Shown here piece after piece: positions 23,184-39,485 of a DNA stretch of 64,000 nucleotides. The stretch lies in the NCBI GenBank assembly GCA_965202665.1, contig OZ241841.1, positions 2,336,001 to 2,400,000 on the forward strand. Direction: 5' to 3'. Source of the stretch: Candidatus Spongiisociaceae bacterium. Its GTDB lineage: Bacteria > Actinomycetota > Acidimicrobiia > Spongiisociales > Spongiisociaceae. Position 1 is the stretch's first letter, and the number at the start of each line of letters is the position of its first letter. The translations under genes and the position numbers were made by a program. A model generated the notes under the pieces. That model saw nothing but the letters and a program-made list of their open reading frames with translations. It was not told the DNA's origin and made no database searches.

Positions 23184-23558
23184 GGCGAGTTCGCCAGACG
23201 GTCGCGGCCGCCCCCGGCGTCGGGAGGCGGTCGAGGAAAGTCCGGACTCCGCAGGACAGGGAGCTGGGTAACGCCCAGGCGGGGCGACCCGACGGAAAGT
23301 GCCGCAGAAACCAGACCGCCGATGGCCCGTAACGGGCACAGGCAAGGGTGAAACGGTGGTGTAAGAGACCACCAGCATTCCGGGCGACCGGGGTGGCTGG
23401 TAAACCCCTCTCGGAGCAAGGTCAAGCAGAGGCGCCGGCGGTCCGCCGATTAAGCCTCGGGTGGACCGCGCGAGGTTTGCGGCAACGCAGATCCCAGATG
23501 GATGACCGTCGCCCGGGGGCAACCCGGGCACAGAATCCGGCTTATCGGCGAACTCGCC
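23184..23558 (+). ncRNA. rnpB: RNase P RNA (type A)
   Basis: GAGGAAAGTCCGGACTCC near the 5' end, ACAGAATCCGGCTTAT near the 3' end, terminal GGCGAGTTCGCC/GGCGAACTCGCC helix; TGcTATCCT extended -10 upstream. Confidence 0.97.
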
Positions 23559-23561
23559 CCT

Positions 23562-24148: not shown

Positions 24149-24823
24149 ATGGCGTCAATTCACAAGTACGTAGCCGAGATGCTGGGCACTTTCGTGCTGG
24201 TCGGCTTGGGCGGAATGTCCATTCTCTACGCCGACGGCGACAGGGTGATGGTCAGCTTCGGCTTCGGTTTGGCCCTGCTGGCGGCCCTGTACATGTTCGG
24301 CGGACGTTCGGGGGCCCATTGCAACCCGGTGGTGTCTTTGGCGATAATGATGCGCAAAGAGATAACGCCCGTTGAATTCGTCGGCTACGCGGTGGGCCAG
24401 TTTGTTGGGGGGCTGGCCGCGGCCGGATTGATTTTAGCCATCGGAAGCCAGAAGGCGGCTGACATGATCGTGGCCGGTCCCGGTTTCAACCCCGCCAATG
24501 TCCGTTTCGGGGCGGATGACATTCTGATTGTGGAAACGATTCTGACCGCAATCCTGGTGATGGTGATTTTGCGCACTACGGCCAGTCATCCGAAGGTCGC
24601 CCCCATCATTATCGCTTTGACGCTGACCGTGCTCCATCTGGCGGCGATTCCCATAACCGGGGCCTCGGCCAACCCGGCCCGCAATCTGGGCCCGGCCATC
24701 GTAGCCGGCGACTTCTCCTTTTTGTGGGCGTATTTCGTCGCCGCCCTGTTGGGTTCGGTGATCGCCTTCTACCTGGACAAGTACGTCAACGAATATGGGA
24801 TGATGTCCGGGGCCGAGGCCTAA
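24149..24823 (+). CDS. MIP/aquaporin channel 1 (NPV/NPA)
   Basis: AEMLGTF, SGAHCNPV, SANPAR. Confidence 0.92.
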   Translation: MASIHKYVAEMLGTFVLVGLGGMSILYADGDRVMVSFGFGLALLAALYMFGGRSGAHCNPVVSLAIMMRKEITPVEFVGYAVGQFVGGLAAAGLILAIGSQKAADMIVAGPGFNPANVRFGADDILIVETILTAILVMVILRTTASHPKVAPIIIALTLTVLHLAAIPITGASANPARNLGPAIVAGDFSFLWAYFVAALLGSVIAFYLDKYVNEYGMMSGAEA

Positions 24824-24910
24824 CCCCGGCCCGTCCGGCAAAAGCCGCAAGGAGCCGGGGAAGCCCGGTAAATTGAGTTCGCGCAACAGCCGGCGAACGG
24901 GAGGTTTCCC

Positions 24911-25609
24911 ATGGTTGCTTCAATGAACAAGTATTTGGCGGAGTTGCTGGGCACCTTCGTGCTGGTGGCGGTGGGTTCCATGTCCATCATCAGCTCCGAC
25001 GGCAACCTGCTGTTCATAGGCTTCGGGTTCGGTTTGGCCCTGCTGGGCGCCATCTACGTGTTCGGGGACCGGTCGGGGGCCCATTTCAACCCGGCGGTCA
25101 CTTTGGCGATGATGATGCGCAAAGACACTTCCCCCTCCGATCTGGTCGGCTATCTGATAGCCCAGACGGCCGGGGCGTTGCTGGCCGCCGGGTTGGTCTT
25201 CTACATCGCGGGCCAGCAGGCGGTGGAGTTCACTTTGACCCGGGCCCCCGATTTGGACATAGTGGAGTTGCTGGTGGTGGAGGGGATCCTCACCGCCATT
25301 TTCGTGATGGTCGTTCTCCGCACCACCGCCGCCCACAAGCGGGCCGCCCCGTTGGCCATTTCGTTGGTGCTGGTGGCCATCCATCTGGCGGCCATCCCCA
25401 TCACCGGGGCGTCGGTCAACCCGGCTCGCAGCCTGGGACCGGCCATCGTCGCCGGGGATTTCACCGACATCTGGGCCTACATCGTCGGTCCGGGGATCGG
25501 AGCGGCGGTCGGCTTCTACTTCGACAAGTTCATCAACGACGACCCGGTCCCCGCTACGCCGGCCGCCGCCGAATCCGCCGACTCCGGCGAACCGGGCGGC
25601 GACGCCTGA
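24911..25609 (+). CDS. MIP/aquaporin channel 2 (AqpZ-like)
   Basis: AELLGTF, SGAHFNPAVT, SVNPARS. Confidence 0.92.
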   Translation: MVASMNKYLAELLGTFVLVAVGSMSIISSDGNLLFIGFGFGLALLGAIYVFGDRSGAHFNPAVTLAMMMRKDTSPSDLVGYLIAQTAGALLAAGLVFYIAGQQAVEFTLTRAPDLDIVELLVVEGILTAIFVMVVLRTTAAHKRAAPLAISLVLVAIHLAAIPITGASVNPARSLGPAIVAGDFTDIWAYIVGPGIGAAVGFYFDKFINDDPVPATPAAAESADSGEPGGDA

Positions 25610-26256: not shown

Positions 26257-27321
26257 ATGGAACAGGCCAACCACGCGCAGGGGGAAAGCGGGTTTTCGTG
26301 GGCGGAGATCCTGGGCGGGCTGGGGGAGGGCCGCCACCTGACCCGGGCCCAGGCCCGGGCGGCCATGGATCGGGTGATGACCGGAGAGGCGGCCCCTTCG
26401 CAAATCGCCGCCCTCATCGTCCTGTTGCGGGCCAAAGGGGAGACGGCGGAGGAAATTCTGGGGCTGGTGGAGGGAATGCGGGCGGCGGCGGTGGCGGTGG
26501 ACTTGGGGGACGCCGACCCGGTGGACATCGTGGGAACCGGAGGGGACCGTTCCGGAACTTTCAACGTGTCCACCACCGCCTCTTTTGCGGTCGCCGGGGC
26601 GGGGGTTCCGGTCGCCAAACACGGCAACCGTTCCATGTCTTCGCAATGCGGCTCGGCCGACCTGTTGGAAGAGTTGGGGGTGGCGATCGACCTGCCCCCG
26701 GAGCGCAACCGGGAACTTTTCCGCCGCACCGGCTACGCCTTTTTCCTGGCGCCCGTCTACCACCCGGCGATGCGCTGGGCGGGGCCGGTGCGCAAAGAGC
26801 TGGGCGTGCCCACCGTGTTCAATTTTCTGGGGCCGCTCAGCAACCCGGCCGGGGTGCGCCGCTTGGCGGTGGGGACGTCGGACGGCCGGATGGCGGAGCG
26901 GATGATAGAGACGTTGCGGGCGGCGGGGGCGGTGCGGGCCTTGGTCTTCCACGGCGAGGACGGGTTGGACGAGTTGAGTTTGGCCGGTCCGTCGGTGGTG
27001 TGGGGCCTGCGGGAGGGGCGGATCACCCGTTCCGTGCTGGAACCGGCGCAGGTCGGGTTGGCGACCGCCCCCTTGGAGTCGGTGCGGGGCGGGGGGGTTT
27101 CCGACAACGCGGCCATCGCCCGGGCGGTGCTGGAAGGGCGCCCCGGACCGGCCCGGGACATGACGGTGTTGAACGCGGCCGCCGCCATCCTGGTTTCCGG
27201 GGCGGCGGACGGGTGGGAGGAGGCGGCGGAGGCGGCCCGGCGCTCTTTGGACGGCGGAGCGGCGGCGGAGGCCCTGTCCCGGGTGGTTGCGGAGAGTCGG
27301 GAACTGGCCGGGTCTTCCTGA
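26257..27321 (+). CDS. trpD: Anthranilate phosphoribosyltransferase
   Basis: DIVGTGGD, FNVST, AKHGNRS..S.CGSADLLE, GLDE. Confidence 0.95.
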   Translation: MEQANHAQGESGFSWAEILGGLGEGRHLTRAQARAAMDRVMTGEAAPSQIAALIVLLRAKGETAEEILGLVEGMRAAAVAVDLGDADPVDIVGTGGDRSGTFNVSTTASFAVAGAGVPVAKHGNRSMSSQCGSADLLEELGVAIDLPPERNRELFRRTGYAFFLAPVYHPAMRWAGPVRKELGVPTVFNFLGPLSNPAGVRRLAVGTSDGRMAERMIETLRAAGAVRALVFHGEDGLDELSLAGPSVVWGLREGRITRSVLEPAQVGLATAPLESVRGGGVSDNAAIARAVLEGRPGPARDMTVLNAAAAILVSGAADGWEEAAEAARRSLDGGAAAEALSRVVAESRELAGSS

Positions 27322-27854
27322 TGGGGCGCCGGGCCTTCGCTTGCCTGTTGGCCGGGTCGGCGCTGGCCGCGGCCTGCGGAACGGGTGAGTTTTCCGAGCC
27401 GCCCGCATCATCCGTTCCGGCCACCGGGGCCTCCCAACCGGCCGAGCCGGCGGACGAACTTGTTCCGAACGTGACCTTGCAGTTGGACGATGGAAGCAGT
27501 TGGACGGCGAGGGAGGCGGCCCGGCCCGCCCTGCTGGTGTTCTGGGCGGAATGGTGAGGGGCCTGCCGGAGGGAGTTGCCTTCCGTAGACGGTTTGGCCC
27601 GGTTGTGGGCCGGGTCGGTGGATGTGATGGCGGTGGCCTGGCAGTCCGGCTGGGAGGAAACCCGGGCGGAGGCGGAGAAACTGTTGCGCACCGGCTGGAC
27701 GCGCTGGACTTTGGACGAGGCGGCGGTAGCGGCGTTCGGCGTGGCGTCGCAACCGGTGTCGATTCTGATAGCCGACGGACGGGAGGTGCGCCGCTGGCAC
27801 GGGCCGGTCGGCGGCGATGTAATCGGATTGGTACGGGATCTGACCCGCACCTGA
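27321..27854 (+). CDS. TlpA/thioredoxin-like lipoprotein selenoprotein 1 (FWAEW-U-GAC)
   Basis: Lipobox AAAC; in-frame TGA at 27555-27557 at the first CxxC position; frame continues as a redoxin fold; hairpin 27567-27585. Confidence 0.85.
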
Positions 27855-27985
27855 CCCCCCGCTACGAGCGAACCCCTTTTCCCCACGTATCCGGCCCGGC
27901 GGCCCCGGGTTTTCAGCATACGGGTGCGGGCGCAACGAAGCCCGGCCCGCTGGGGAACAGGCCGGGCTCGGTCGGGGGTGGCGGG

Positions 27986-28435
27986 TTACTTTTCCGCCGC
28001 GGATGGGTCGGCGATGGACCGGATCCTCTCCGGATTGTCCGGAACGGGGACGGACGGAGCCGGGCGGGGCGGAGCGGGTTCGGGAGGGACGGGATGGCCG
28101 TCGGTTATCCGCAACCGGTACATTACGACTTTCATGTTCCCCTCCACATCTCGAACTCGGTTATCAATGGTCAGCAGCCGGTCCTCGACTCGCTGAGTGC
28201 CGTTCGCCAGCCGGTTGGATTCCTCTCGGATTTTGCCTTCCAGGGAGGTTCTGGCCTCTTTGAGGTCGTCGGCAACCTTCTGGGTGTTGGCCTCCTGCCG
28301 GTTGGATTCCCGCAGGATCATATCCTCCAGTCCCTTCGCCAATTGGCGGGTGTCCTTCCGTTGCAAAACGAAGAACACCGTAAGCCCGCCGATGGTCGTC
28401 AGGGCGCCGGATATGCTGGCGTAGAACTCTTCCAT
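27986..28435 (-). CDS. Single-TM coiled-coil protein, related to the 38.9-43.8 kb array
   Basis: N-terminal TM, heptad repeats, MKVV..RL.I, C-terminal AAEK as in the array genes. Confidence 0.65.
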   Translation of the reverse strand: MEEFYASISGALTTIGGLTVFFVLQRKDTRQLAKGLEDMILRESNRQEANTQKVADDLKEARTSLEGKIREESNRLANGTQRVEDRLLTIDNRVRDVEGNMKVVMYRLRITDGHPVPPEPAPPRPAPSVPVPDNPERIRSIADPSAAEK

Positions 28436-28636
28436 GCTCGTACCTTACCCTTTCTGCGTCAGGGTGCGCGCCATTCGGGCCGCGCTTCTTACAATATGCA
28501 ACATAAGGTAAAAAAACGACGACGACAACCCCCTTGTTTCAAGAAACGGCCAAAACGCGAAAAAATCTTTAGCCCGTTGGGCGCCAACCACGGCAAAATC
28601 GTTCATATACCGCGCCGGACGGACTATTCTGGGGAT

Positions 28637-29179
28637 ATGAAACCCCGCATAGGTTTCGCAACGGCGATCGGTTTGATGCTGGCGGTCGCCGCCTGCGGGT
28701 CCGGATCCGAGCCAGCCGGGACGGCCTCCTCCGCCCCGCCGGTTCAGGAAACCCCCTCCGCCCCGTCGGGACCGGCCGCCCCCGCCGTCTCCTTGCAGTT
28801 GGACGACGGTTCCTCGTTTGATTCTTCGCAGGCCGTCCGGCCCACCCTGTACGTGTTCTGGGCGGAATGGTGACCGACCTGTCAGCGGGAGTTGCCCGCT
28901 GTGGACGGCCTGGCGGCGGAGTACGAGGGCCGGGCGGACGTGATCGCGGTGGCCTGGAAGGCGTCTTTGGCGGACACTTCCGCCGCCGCCCGGCGGCTGT
29001 TGACCAGCGGGGCGACGCGCTGGGCCTTGGATGAGGATGAAAGCGTGTTCGCCGCCTTCGAAGTCGGCTACCAGCCGGTGTCGGCCCTGGTCCATCAGGG
29101 CGTGGAAATCGGACGTTGGCACGGGGAGGTTCCCATCTCCGAGGTGCGCGCCCTGTTAGATGAGGCGGTGCGGCTGTGA
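28637..29179 (+). CDS. TlpA/thioredoxin-like lipoprotein selenoprotein 2 (FWAEW-U-PTC)
   Basis: Lipobox VAAC; in-frame TGA at 28871-28873; hairpin 28883-28901. Confidence 0.87.
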
Positions 29180-30285
29180 GCCGGGCCGGATGGGGGAGGG
29201 CCCTCGTCCTCCTGGCGATTCTGGCGGTGATCGCCGCCGCCTGCGGCTCCGGGGCCGCGCCCGAGTCGGCTTCTCCAACCGAAGCGGAGGCCCCGCCCGC
29301 CCCGGCGACGACCGCCGCCCCGCCCGCAACCACGGCGGACTCCGCGGCGCCGGGTTCAACCGCCGTTGCGCCCGAATCGCCCCAACCGGAAGTTTCCACT
29401 ACCCCCGCCCCCGCCCAACCCGAAGCCGAGGCCCCCGCCGAGGAAGCAACCGAGGATGTCCCCGCAACCACCGAAGCCCCTACCTCCACCACCGCAACGG
29501 AAACCACCGTCGCCGCGCCGGCCACTACATCGACCACCGCTACTTCCGCCGTCGCCTCCACCACCGCCGCGACGACCACCGCGGTGGTTTCCGCCGATCC
29601 CGATCCCACCACCACCGTTCCCGCAACCACCACGACCACTACGACCACGGCCGTCACCACCACGACCACGGCCGCCACCACTACCGTCGCAACCACCACT
29701 ACGACGACCGCTCCCACCACGACGACAACCACCACAACCACTACCGCTCCCGCCAGGACGACCACCACCAGGGCCGCCCCTGCCACCACCAGGGCCGCCC
29801 CTGCCACCACCAGGGCCGCGCCTACCACCACGACCACCACCACGCCTACCACCACGACCACCACCCGGCCCCGGCCGCAGGGTCCGGCCGCCCCGTCGGT
29901 GACGCTGGCCCTCGACGATGGTTCCACTTTTAGTTCAGCCAACGCCTCCCGGCCCATCCTCTACGTGTTCTGGGCGGAATGGTGACCGACCTGTCAGCGG
30001 GAGTTGCCCGCTGTGGACAATCTGGCGAGGGAGTACCGGGGGCGGGTGGACGTGATCGCGGTGGCCTGGAAAGCCTCCTACGACGACACGGCCTCCCGGG
30101 CCCGGAGCCTGCTGACCAGCGGCGCGGTGCGCTGGGGGCTGGACGAAGACCAGAGCATTTTCGGAGCGTTCGGTTTTTCCTACCAGCCCAATATGGCTTT
30201 GGTCAGCCAAGGCGTGCTGGTGAAAAAATGGATAGGGGCCGCCCCCATGCAGGATCTGCGGGCCGAAATAAACAATCTCTTGTGA
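29176..30285 (+). CDS. TlpA/thioredoxin-like lipoprotein selenoprotein 3 with long Thr/Ala/Pro stalk
   Basis: Lipobox AAAC; ~200-aa Thr-rich linker; in-frame TGA at 29983-29985; hairpin 29995-30013. Confidence 0.87.
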
Positions 30286-31499
30286 CAGCGCCACCCCCCA
30301 AAGTATTGGAGTCCCTCCCGCCGGCGGATGGACCCGCCGCGGACGGGGGCGGGACTCCCGAAGGAAACCCGCCGCTCCGGGTGGTCAAAGAGTTTTGGAC
30401 GGCCCGGCAAAGGCGGGGGCACAGCCTGCACGAGATAAGCTACCGGGCCTGTTTCAAGCCGCAACTGCCCGAATTTTTCATCGAAAAATACACCAGGCAG
30501 GGCGATTTGGTGGCGGACCCTTTTCTGGGACGGGGAACCACCCCGTTGCAAGCCCATCTGATGGATCGGCGGGCGGCGGGCAGCGACGTCAACCCGCTGT
30601 GCGTAATGCTGGCCCGCCCCCGGTTTGACCCGCCTCCCCTCCGCGAAGCGGAAGCCAGGTTGCGGGAAATCCTGGACGCCGGCGGCGATGTTGCGGACGC
30701 CGCCGCCCCCGAGGATGACCTGCTCGCCTTCTACCACCCGGACACCTTGTCGCAACTTTTGATCCTCCGGCGGTGGTTCATGGACCGGGAGCGGGAGGAC
30801 GGGTTGGATCGCACCGACGATTGGCTCCGCATGGTTTGCCTGAATCGCCTGAGCGGGCATTCGCCCGGGTTTTTCTCGGTGCGCACCATGCCGCCCAACC
30901 AGGCGGTGTCCGCCGAGTCGCAACGCCGCATCAACCAGCGGCAAGATCAAACCCCCGGCCCCAAGGACATCGTTGACATCGTGATGAGAAAATCCCGTTC
31001 GCTGTTGCGCACCGGATATCCCGCTCCGCAAACGCCGGCCCCTCCCATGTTGCGCACCGCCACCGCCGACCACCTCTTCTACCTAGCCGACGGCTCGGTT
31101 GATTTAGTAGTCACTTCTCCCCCTTTTCTCAACATTGTGGACTACCGCAAAGACAATTGGCTACGGTGTTGGTTCGCAGGCGTTGATGTTAGCGAAGTTC
31201 AAATAAGCGGTTTTTCCTCGGTCACCGAATGGAGGGGTTTTGTCCGCAACGCCCTGCGGGAAATGTCCCGGGTGGTGCGAGCGGGCGGCCACATAGCGTT
31301 TGAGGTGGGGGAGGTGCGCAACGGAGAGGTGCTGCTAGAAGAACAAGTGCTACAAGCATCGGAAGGGTTGCCCCTGATACCACGCGAGGTGCTGGTCAAC
31401 CAACAAAATTTCACAAAAACCTCCAACCTGTGGGGCGTAGACAACAACAACGGCGGCACCAACACCAACCGAGTAGTGCTTCTACAAAGAGCAAACTAA
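30282..31499 (+). CDS. Amino-DNA methyltransferase (probably m4C; motif I before motif IV)
   Basis: DPFLGRGTT followed by VTSPPF; GTGA overlap with the upstream gene. Confidence 0.85.
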   Translation: MTAPPPKVLESLPPADGPAADGGGTPEGNPPLRVVKEFWTARQRRGHSLHEISYRACFKPQLPEFFIEKYTRQGDLVADPFLGRGTTPLQAHLMDRRAAGSDVNPLCVMLARPRFDPPPLREAEARLREILDAGGDVADAAAPEDDLLAFYHPDTLSQLLILRRWFMDREREDGLDRTDDWLRMVCLNRLSGHSPGFFSVRTMPPNQAVSAESQRRINQRQDQTPGPKDIVDIVMRKSRSLLRTGYPAPQTPAPPMLRTATADHLFYLADGSVDLVVTSPPFLNIVDYRKDNWLRCWFAGVDVSEVQISGFSSVTEWRGFVRNALREMSRVVRAGGHIAFEVGEVRNGEVLLEEQVLQASEGLPLIPREVLVNQQNFTKTSNLWGVDNNNGGTNTNRVVLLQRAN

Positions 31500-32119
31500 T
31501 GACTACTAAGCCTTTCTATCAAGTTATCAAACACCTCACAGGATATAAGGTGTTTCCTTTGGCTAACGCTGATTTGGCTAACGCTGATTTGGCTAACGCT
31601 GATTCAGATTCGCCTGTTATCGATACGTTGCAACTCGTTGCGGATACGGTTGCTGAAGATATAACGCTAAACCCTATCACAAGGCCGCGTCCCAATGAAG
31701 TTGGCAATGACGTGAAGAAAAGAGTTGGTAAAGTATTAAAAGCAGAAAATAAAGTTAACATTATCCCTATGGCTAAAAAGGCAGATTATCTAGAGCCAGC
31801 AGGTTATCCAGATTTCAAGATTCGTATTGCTGACGAAATATATTTTTTGGAATGCAAGACCTTTCAATCTGACCAAAAGAAAAAATCAATGAGAAGTTTT
31901 TATTGTTCTGATGGTCCCTCTATACGAGAAAAAATTAACTGCGATGCTATTCATATTTTGATGTCCTTTGAAATGAGAAATCAAGGGAATAAATATACTC
32001 CGCTATCTTATAGATTGGTTGATTTATATGATTTGCCTTGCACGCTCAAAAAGGAGTGGAATTCAAGCAATACAGAATTATACGCGTCGGGCAGAATTTT
32101 AGCTAAAAAGAATGTATAG
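31499..32119 (+). CDS. PD-(D/E)xK restriction endonuclease-like protein
   Basis: GYPDFKI...FLECKT; AT-rich; overlaps the MTase stop. Confidence 0.75.
   Translation: MTTKPFYQVIKHLTGYKVFPLANADLANADLANADSDSPVIDTLQLVADTVAEDITLNPITRPRPNEVGNDVKKRVGKVLKAENKVNIIPMAKKADYLEPAGYPDFKIRIADEIYFLECKTFQSDQKKKSMRSFYCSDGPSIREKINCDAIHILMSFEMRNQGNKYTPLSYRLVDLYDLPCTLKKEWNSSNTELYASGRILAKKNV
31558..31603 (+). repeat. 15-bp tandem repeat x3 (TTTGGCTAACGCTGA; LANAD x3)
   Basis: Directly visible in the sequence. Confidence 0.9.
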
Positions 32120-38921: not shown

Positions 38922-39485
38922 GTGAACGGTGAATTCCTATACAACCTGTATTTGATAGTCGGGCTGTTCGTAGCCCTGACCACGGTGGTCTGGCTGTTCA
39001 CCGCCGCCAACCGGCGAGCTATCCAGCAGGTCAAGGCCGACCTGGAGCGGGATATCCGCCGGGTGGACAAGAACGTCCGTCGGGTGGAGAAAGGCGTCCG
39101 TCGGGACATCCGCCGGGTGGACAAGCGGCTGTCGCGGGAGATCCGGAAGACGAATCGGGAGGCTCGGGAGACGAATAAGTCGGTGTGGCGGTTGCGGGTG
39201 GATATGCAGGTGGTCAAGGATCGCTTGAACATAGGGGAGGATTCCCGCCCGGTCGATTCCGCTCCGGTTGAGGCTGGTCCCGAGGCGGAGTTGTCCGTAT
39301 CGTCTGATTCGGCTGCGACTGGCCCGGCGCCTGGGTCGCCTGAGTCGGGTTCGGGTGTTTCCGTTCCGGTTGCGGATGACGCTGTGTCGAGGCCTGTCGG
39401 TTCGCGGGCGGCTGCGCACCGGCAGGGCGGGGCCGGGGCGGTTCCGTCTGGGATCACCGCCCCTCTCCCGGCTGCTGAAAAGTAA
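38922..39485 (+). CDS. TM-anchored coiled-coil repeat protein 1
   Basis: TATACT -10, AAGGAG RBS, GTG start; MNGEFLYNLY...DIRRVDK repeats...AAEK. Confidence 0.75.
   Translation: MNGEFLYNLYLIVGLFVALTTVVWLFTAANRRAIQQVKADLERDIRRVDKNVRRVEKGVRRDIRRVDKRLSREIRKTNREARETNKSVWRLRVDMQVVKDRLNIGEDSRPVDSAPVEAGPEAELSVSSDSAATGPAPGSPESGSGVSVPVADDAVSRPVGSRAAAHRQGGAGAVPSGITAPLPAAEK

Follow-up and report, generated by a model that had tools for sequence, protein, structure and literature searches.

Three short hairpins that follow in-frame TGA codons in a 64,000-nt stretch of DNA from a Candidatus Spongiisociaceae bacterium (assembly GCA_965202665.1, contig OZ241841.1, positions 2,336,001 to 2,400,000; the whole stretch is called the window below) are, with a probability that we put at about 93%, standard bacterial selenocysteine insertion sequence (SECIS) elements, judging from sequence comparison. 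They would serve the insertion of selenocysteine (Sec) at the UGA codons of three redoxin/TlpA-like genes. The genes, codons and hairpins lie in the window as follows.

27321..27854, + strand: redoxin/TlpA-like gene 1, 177 aa with UGA read as Sec, U79-G-A-C82, lipobox-like Cys19 (by eye); its start overlaps the trpD stop
27555..27557, + strand: in-frame TGA of gene 1, at the first Cys position of CxxC; predicted Sec codon
27567..27585, + strand: predicted SECIS hairpin 1, 7-bp stem with one G-U pair, loop 27574-27578
28637..29179, + strand: redoxin/TlpA-like gene 2, 180 aa, U79-P-T-C82, lipobox-like Cys20 (by eye)
28871..28873, + strand: in-frame TGA of gene 2; predicted Sec codon
28883..28901, + strand: predicted SECIS hairpin 2, 7 Watson-Crick pairs, loop 28890-28894
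29176..30285, + strand: redoxin/TlpA-like gene 3, 369 aa, U270-P-T-C273, lipobox-like Cys23 (by eye); its start overlaps the gene 2 stop
29983..29985, + strand: in-frame TGA of gene 3; predicted Sec codon
29995..30013, + strand: predicted SECIS hairpin 3, same sequence as hairpin 2, loop 30002-30006

Each hairpin spans 19 nt and begins 9 nt after its in-frame TGA (n = 3). In all three, the AGTTG loop starts at the 17th nt after TGA, leaving 16 nt between UGA and loop. The hairpins had first been noticed in the bare sequence, and the 9-nt offset, the 7-bp stem and the AGTTG loop given in this original prediction were reproduced at every site. It had also stated that the stem is kept despite substitutions on both arms that alter the protein. 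Indeed, between hairpin 1 and hairpins 2 and 3, pair 2 changes from G-C to A-U and pair 4 from A-U to C-G, both on two sides, pair 5 changes from G-U to G-C, and the peptide encoded across the hairpin is RRELPS in copy 1 and QRELPA in copies 2 and 3. However, since copies 2 and 3 are identical around UGA, the window offers two independent versions of the element and not three. Contigs from three other runs (X3, X4 and X6) span all three sites, and both the TGAs and the hairpins are unchanged among the matches listed. No RNA dataset was present among the listed sequencing runs containing this DNA.

Such hairpins could be a by-product, with no RNA function, of a conserved C-x-R-E-L-P peptide, a GC-rich genome and a recent duplication. 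The three copies are paralogous, two of them being identical around UGA, and their folding z-scores are weak. Moreover, the A and the second U of the loop are fixed by the Glu and Leu codons, so that only the G and the U are RNA-level choices in the redoxin genes, and GAG-TTG alone has a P of ~0.17. On the other hand, under synonymous recoding with the peptide fixed and genome codon usage, a stem of at least 7 bp has a probability of 0.007-0.011 per window version, and a stem together with an AGTT loop of ~0.001. The genome carries 10 AGTTG hairpins with a stem of at least 7 bp, and a TGA precedes 4 of these 10 at a distance of 17-19 nt, where 0.32 would be expected, though three of the four had defined the motif.

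Comparison with relatives also bears on this alternative. Of 61 genomes searched, 51 contain an ortholog with TGA at this position: the own genome, 26 of 28 of the same family and 24 of 32 of other families of the order. The unpublished genome G043 is counted in tallies only, among them this 61-genome one, those of PrdB, UGSC and SelD, and the mining of 41 genomes given below, and none of the conclusions depends on its sequence. Among 81 distinct close TGA orthologs, the stem reaches 6 bp or more in 77 and the loop is of the AGTT type in 79. In the 49 distinct hairpins used for covariation analysis, 94.2% of cells are paired and five of the seven pairs vary on both sides; none of 500 shuffles reached any of the five measures, partners slid out of register were 36-73% paired, and RNAalifold recovered 6 of the 7 pairs unaided. 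Synonymous recoding gave a similar picture, with stems of at least 6 bp in 26 of 29 distinct ortholog peptides against 1.1 expected. This test applied the codon usage of G000, the own genome, to all genomes, and its set excluded four TGA rows (one spurious, three of another thioredoxin-like clade) and eight Cys rows failing the motif filter. Codon choice points the same way: the loop Glu codon is GAG in 57/57 rows (54% genome-wide), the loop Leu codon is TTR in 56/57, and 30/57 rows use the rare CGA (3.5%), whose bases pair with the 3' arm. The improbability of stem and loop, the compensatory changes that alter amino acids, the other codons and 1-2 bp stems of Cys orthologs that retain E-L-P, and the same geometry in other frames of unrelated Sec genes together leave the by-product explanation very improbable and already largely refuted.

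Orthologs with Cys at the Sec position provide a natural control, and their keeping the hairpin had been named beforehand as what would speak against a SECIS. A stem of at least 6 bp or an AGTT loop was found in none of 5 close and none of 45 distant Cys homologs. The tree covers 114 of 146 rows, namely every row scoring at least 55 bits and one in three of the others, with a minimum length of 90. In it, four Cys rows branch at three points within an 85-row Sec clade (support 100/99), and the hairpin is gone in all four. Two of them retain E-L-P with other codons and stems of only 1-2 bp. For two genomes with a Cys ortholog, G149 and G113 (95 and 97% complete), selA and tRNA-Sec were not found; in G232, which also has a Cys ortholog, both are present. 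A second, separate thioredoxin-like clade has an in-frame TGA in some family members (L077, at G014:C1:1335000-1337800, L078 and L079); it comprises two genes in tandem in G014, and its hairpins are weak or of other kinds.

The Cys orthologs are also informative about the UGA itself, which could be a real stop, in which case the gene would either give two products, a lipopeptide and a C-terminal fragment translated from its own start (the loop TTG), or be a pseudogene. Public gene calls do present separate C-terminal halves: a search of 5.8 billion proteins returned 24 C-terminal fragments of 79-95 aa, several of those read beginning at the loop TTG, and two distant matches, with no close full-length relative of the redoxin products. 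Since the public records are C-terminal fragments, we conclude that gene callers split the redoxin genes at UGA. A true stop is extremely improbable, as the same TGA stands at the same catalytic position across the order with both halves conserved, the Cys orthologs are continuous, and the split would remove both active-site residues.

The genome encodes complete Sec machinery. SelB scores above its cut-off and SelA was identified; SelD is present with an in-frame TGA of its own, and tRNA-Sec scores 77.8 bits. The C-terminus of SelB matches the solved SECIS-binding winged-helix fragments 2PLY, 1LVA and 1WSU. TGA is the commonest stop, ending 1196 of 2089 predicted genes, which rules out a general reassignment of UGA. 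Generic readthrough can be stimulated by a stem that follows a stop codon, and the hairpin could be functional but independent of SelB, promoting near-cognate Trp or Cys readthrough at UGA or only ribosome pausing. We regard this as very unlikely. The loop G-U is kept by synonymous choice, suggesting base-specific recognition; the spacing resembles that of the FdhA SECIS of this genome and of E. coli fdhF (G-U at +20/+21); the UGA form did not appear in either of the two genomes in which searches for selA and selC came up empty; and the sole UCA tRNA reported by ARAGORN at default settings scores as tRNA-Sec. Separately, a broken copy of the selB 3' end lies at C1:1779858-1780031 (-) (locus L008), ~7 kb from the intact selA-selB pair.

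Taken together, UGA aligns with a conserved Cys, being at the first Cys of CxxC in 51/61 genomes, the sel genes are present, the hairpin covaries and is under selection where UGA occurs, and it is lost where Cys replaces Sec. The assignment as a bacterial SECIS made in the original prediction therefore stands, as a prediction. In this scheme, SelB would bind the hairpin and UGA would be read as selenocysteine. Its WHD3-4 would grip the G-U of the five-base loop, with G at +18 after UGA, near the mRNA entry channel, and its N-terminal half would deliver Sec-tRNA(Sec) to UGA in the A site, following the loop-gripping and delivery model outlined for SelB (PMC4605307). The expected outcome would be full-length U-x-x-C redoxins, lipid-anchored outside the membrane, with Sec as the nucleophile.

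Several observations weigh against the SECIS assignment or limit its weight. The folding-energy z-scores of -0.27 to -1.53 are not significant, and the window hairpin is missing from 2/6 minimum-energy folds (present in 4/6). An Rfam scan of the window gave no SECIS family at the gathering score, matching only RNase P; Rfam SECIS models failed in Actinomarina too, according to a preprint (10.64898/2026.04.03.716425). Four of the 81 TGA orthologs have a contiguous stem shorter than 6 bp and two an AGCUY loop. The two innermost pairs are invariant and the outermost is broken in 15/49 hairpins. The number of independent Sec-to-Cys changes observed is just 2-3, one of which lies on a long branch (L269), and since the orthologs are kin, counts overstate independent events. 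The SelD hairpin of the same genomes is placed differently, outside the 16-37 nt consensus, and the lipoprotein assignment depends on judgement by eye.

The published bacterial SECIS consensus, as summarised in PMC13188914 and PMC4605307, comprises an apical loop of 3-9 nt with G within the first two positions, usually followed by G or U, an upper stem of 4-16 bp, 16-37 nt from UGA to the loop and an energy of at most -7.5 kcal/mol. With a 7-bp stem, a 5-nt loop starting A-G-U and a spacing of 16 nt, nothing in the window hairpins falls outside these ranges, and they likewise agree with a published stem length of 6-8 bp and a loop G located some 20 nt after UGA. The 39 nt after UGA give -13.5, -18.5 and -14.3 kcal/mol in the three copies, within the energy limit, although this limit does not discriminate, as 37 of the 45 distant Cys controls stay within it too. 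A 7-bp stem with a G-containing loop is also what is expected for Gram-positive species (10.1101/2022.07.06.499078), and reviews note that bacterial SECIS elements have few features in common (PMC13188914, PMC13326102).

An fdhF-type SECIS requires a bulged U (U17 in E. coli). No conserved bulged U was seen in the redoxin hairpins, which places them outside this type. In E. coli (NC_000913.3), the fdhF SECIS folds into an interrupted, bulged stem of greater length with a GGUC-type loop, whereas the redoxin hairpin is a single short uninterrupted stem. The fdhF loop G-U lies at +20/+21, as in the FdhA of the present genome, and that of the redoxin genes at +18/+19. Mechanistically, the element is a textbook bacterial SECIS and would therefore not surprise a specialist.

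The original prediction had further described the hairpin as lineage-specific, which held only in part. In its favour, the AGUUG loop recurs in two unrelated genes of the same genome. A PrdB-like gene (C1 +1545658, locus L020; D-proline reductase selenoprotein B-like) encodes U-P-V-C and carries an AGUUG hairpin at +18; its TGA is found in all 46 matches listed, across 38/61 genomes, and the loop is built with the rare codons TCA-GTT in 28/36 rows. A UGSC-family gene (C1 +839283, locus L019) encodes U-G-A-C with an AGUUG hairpin at +19; its TGA is found in all 21 matches listed in relatives, and the loop uses the rare codon AGT in 6/6 close rows. The loops of these two genes occupy the other two reading frames relative to the redoxin loop, and no case in which three unrelated genes share AGUUG across three frames came up in the literature searched. 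In the same cluster as the UGSC gene are a member of the AtuA family and an unclassified gene encoding 351 aa.

On the other hand, the hairpins fit the general bacterial consensus, and other Sec genes of the lineage use other loops. The FdhA loop is GGUCU at +19 in 30/30 loci, distant PrdB-like genes mostly have GGUCG (the hairpin being absent at that place in five), a second UGSC paralog has AGUGU in 15/15 and GrdB has a GGG or GGU triloop. The SelD gene (C1 +1360373, locus L010) has a conserved 6-bp stem with a loop from 13 nt after UGA, and five genomes of the order encode a Cys SelD, mostly without this hairpin. In other orders, Sec thioredoxin-like genes have AGGCU or AAGCU at the same offset, or hairpins further on. 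The Sec genes share a core in which a stem of 5-8 bp carries a loop G, in most cases as G-U, at +18 to +20. For the redoxin genes, what the RNA seems to require is a stem of 6-7 bp and, at +18 to +20, a loop G that is usually followed by U, the peptide largely dictating the other bases of AGUUG. Since the redoxin loop is partly set by Glu/Leu and the UGSC loop mostly by Ser/Cys, PrdB is the only gene to suggest a preference going further than G-U.

The proposal that the element could be used to mine further selenoproteins also found partial support. A descriptor was defined with a loop N-G-G/U-N-N at +17 to +19 and a stem of 6, or 4 plus a bulge. It matches 303 of the 58,373 TGAs of the genome, and a coding filter leaves 10. 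Six of these are homology-confirmed Sec sites, including PrdB-like, UGSC and FdhA, and the other four are low-scoring. Mining thus recovered 6 of the 7 known Sec sites of the genome, missing SelD. At predicted gene ends, the descriptor fits 12/1196 TGA, six of them the confirmed Sec sites, and 5/893 TAA/TAG, which gives a background of ~0.5%. Sequence-pattern mining in 41 genomes revealed no new family: of 70 listed matches inspected (30 tool-returned loci and 40 hand-picked outside known genes), 11 were redoxin/UGSC, and 0/59 non-target matches had both stem and coding context. The suggested genome scan with a covariance model failed as a mining tool, the model of the 49 redoxin hairpins being too gene-specific, since only the three training genes score meaningfully in the genome. 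A general multi-family model was dropped because mixed-family alignments gapped the stem or shifted the loops. The readthrough candidates C1 +1830164, +870854, -2472968, +287862 and -854711 were rejected, on inspection only, as gene junctions, upstream extensions or antisense frames.

The three redoxin products share the active-site context WAEW-U-x-x-C. They match Pfam Redoxin (PF08534) with 28.9, 43.9 and 44.7 bits against a cut-off of 26.6, and the homology continues through the TGA in 3/3; the Pfam Thioredoxin cut-off is also passed by all three. Scores against all NCBIfam models stay below the curated cut-offs, the best being 37.6 bits; StoA is among these models, and TlpA, ResA, DsbE and WAxxUGC_long fall far short. 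A single-sequence AlphaFold model reached a pLDDT of 47 and was not used. The N-termini show a basic start, a hydrophobic run and A-A-C, by eye only, so that lipoprotein status is provisional. The product of gene 3 additionally contains a Thr/Ala/Pro-rich linker of ~200 aa (window 29240-29880, +), whose length differs among strains.

The best PDB match is the mycobacterial lipoprotein DsbF (3IOS), with E 8e-10 over residues 3-118 of 140. Its W-C-P-T-C aligns with the redoxin U-P-T-C, and a downstream Q-P is aligned too. DsbF 3IOS, DsbE/MPT53 1LU4 and ResA 4NMU have Cys at the attacking position, where the redoxin products have Sec. Because of the signal-like N-terminus, the lipobox-like Cys and the likeness to DsbF/DsbE/ResA, we predict that the products are anchored in the membrane and act outside the cytoplasm as thiol-disulfide oxidoreductases in which Sec is the attacking residue. 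However, this similarity is distant and redox direction and substrate are therefore not transferable. The DNA of the host occurs in sponge and marine metagenomes, and the host is likely a sponge-associated bacterium.

A published inventory of selenoproteins (PMC13188914, Table 1) lists Redoxin-family UxxC (PF08534), thiol-disulfide isomerase-like (cd02966) and Prx-like thiol:disulfide oxidoreductase proteins, and likewise PrdB, UGSC, FdhA and SelD. The redoxin products have the thioredoxin-type match and UxxC in common with the inventoried UxxC selenoproteins, a likeness by family description only, as given there (PMC13188914). They stay under every NCBIfam cut-off, and a search of 301 class genomes gave matches with E below 1e-16 only within the order, three of these having Cys. 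In the literature searched, which leaves most subscription papers aside, neither SECIS elements nor selenoproteins were found described for this order. The nearest paper besides the Actinomarina preprint concerns a mycobacterial FDH SECIS (PMC13449736). BSepDB covers 16,621 species (PMC13326102), and it or the supplements of papers may already list these redoxin proteins. A bolder and tentative proposal, which we consider rather unlikely as a whole, is that the SelB of Ca. Spongiisociales is tuned to an AGUUR pentaloop, on which unrelated genes would have converged in three frames, including rare PrdB codons unneeded by the G-U rule, and that the proteins encoded across the hairpin belong to a so far uncatalogued family, spread through the order, of exported DsbF/ResA-like selenolipoproteins that would be tripled in this genome and hidden from protein databases by the cut at UGA.

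Concerning the genomic surroundings, trpD lies within the fetched flank in 33 of 54 ortholog loci and a convergent ccmG in 25, a positional association only. Two tandem aquaporin-like genes (window 24149-25609, +; by eye, from NPA-like motifs) are located upstream of trpD, and the class A RNase P RNA at 23186-23560 (+). Between redoxin genes 1 and 2 there is a 149-aa open reading frame (ORF; 27986-28435, -) with no Pfam match, whose N-terminus resembles short ORFs at 38922, 39743 and 43489. A DNA methyltransferase gene (PF01555) and a low-GC ORF with no trusted Pfam match (30330-32119, +) sit between redoxin gene 3 and a convergent ccm operon; ccmG lies directly next to the redoxin gene in many relatives.

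Collectively, these data very likely reveal a well-conserved but unannotated selenoprotein clade with a real, functional bacterial SECIS. With them, the annotation could be corrected for a selenoprotein family that occurs in most genomes of an Acidimicrobiia order and is so far represented by fragments only in a set of 5.8 billion proteins. Amino-acid-changing covariation together with hairpin decay after independent Sec-to-Cys changes constitutes an unusually clean natural experiment. Furthermore, one five-base loop in three reading frames could offer a ready panel for what a non-enterobacterial SelB reads.

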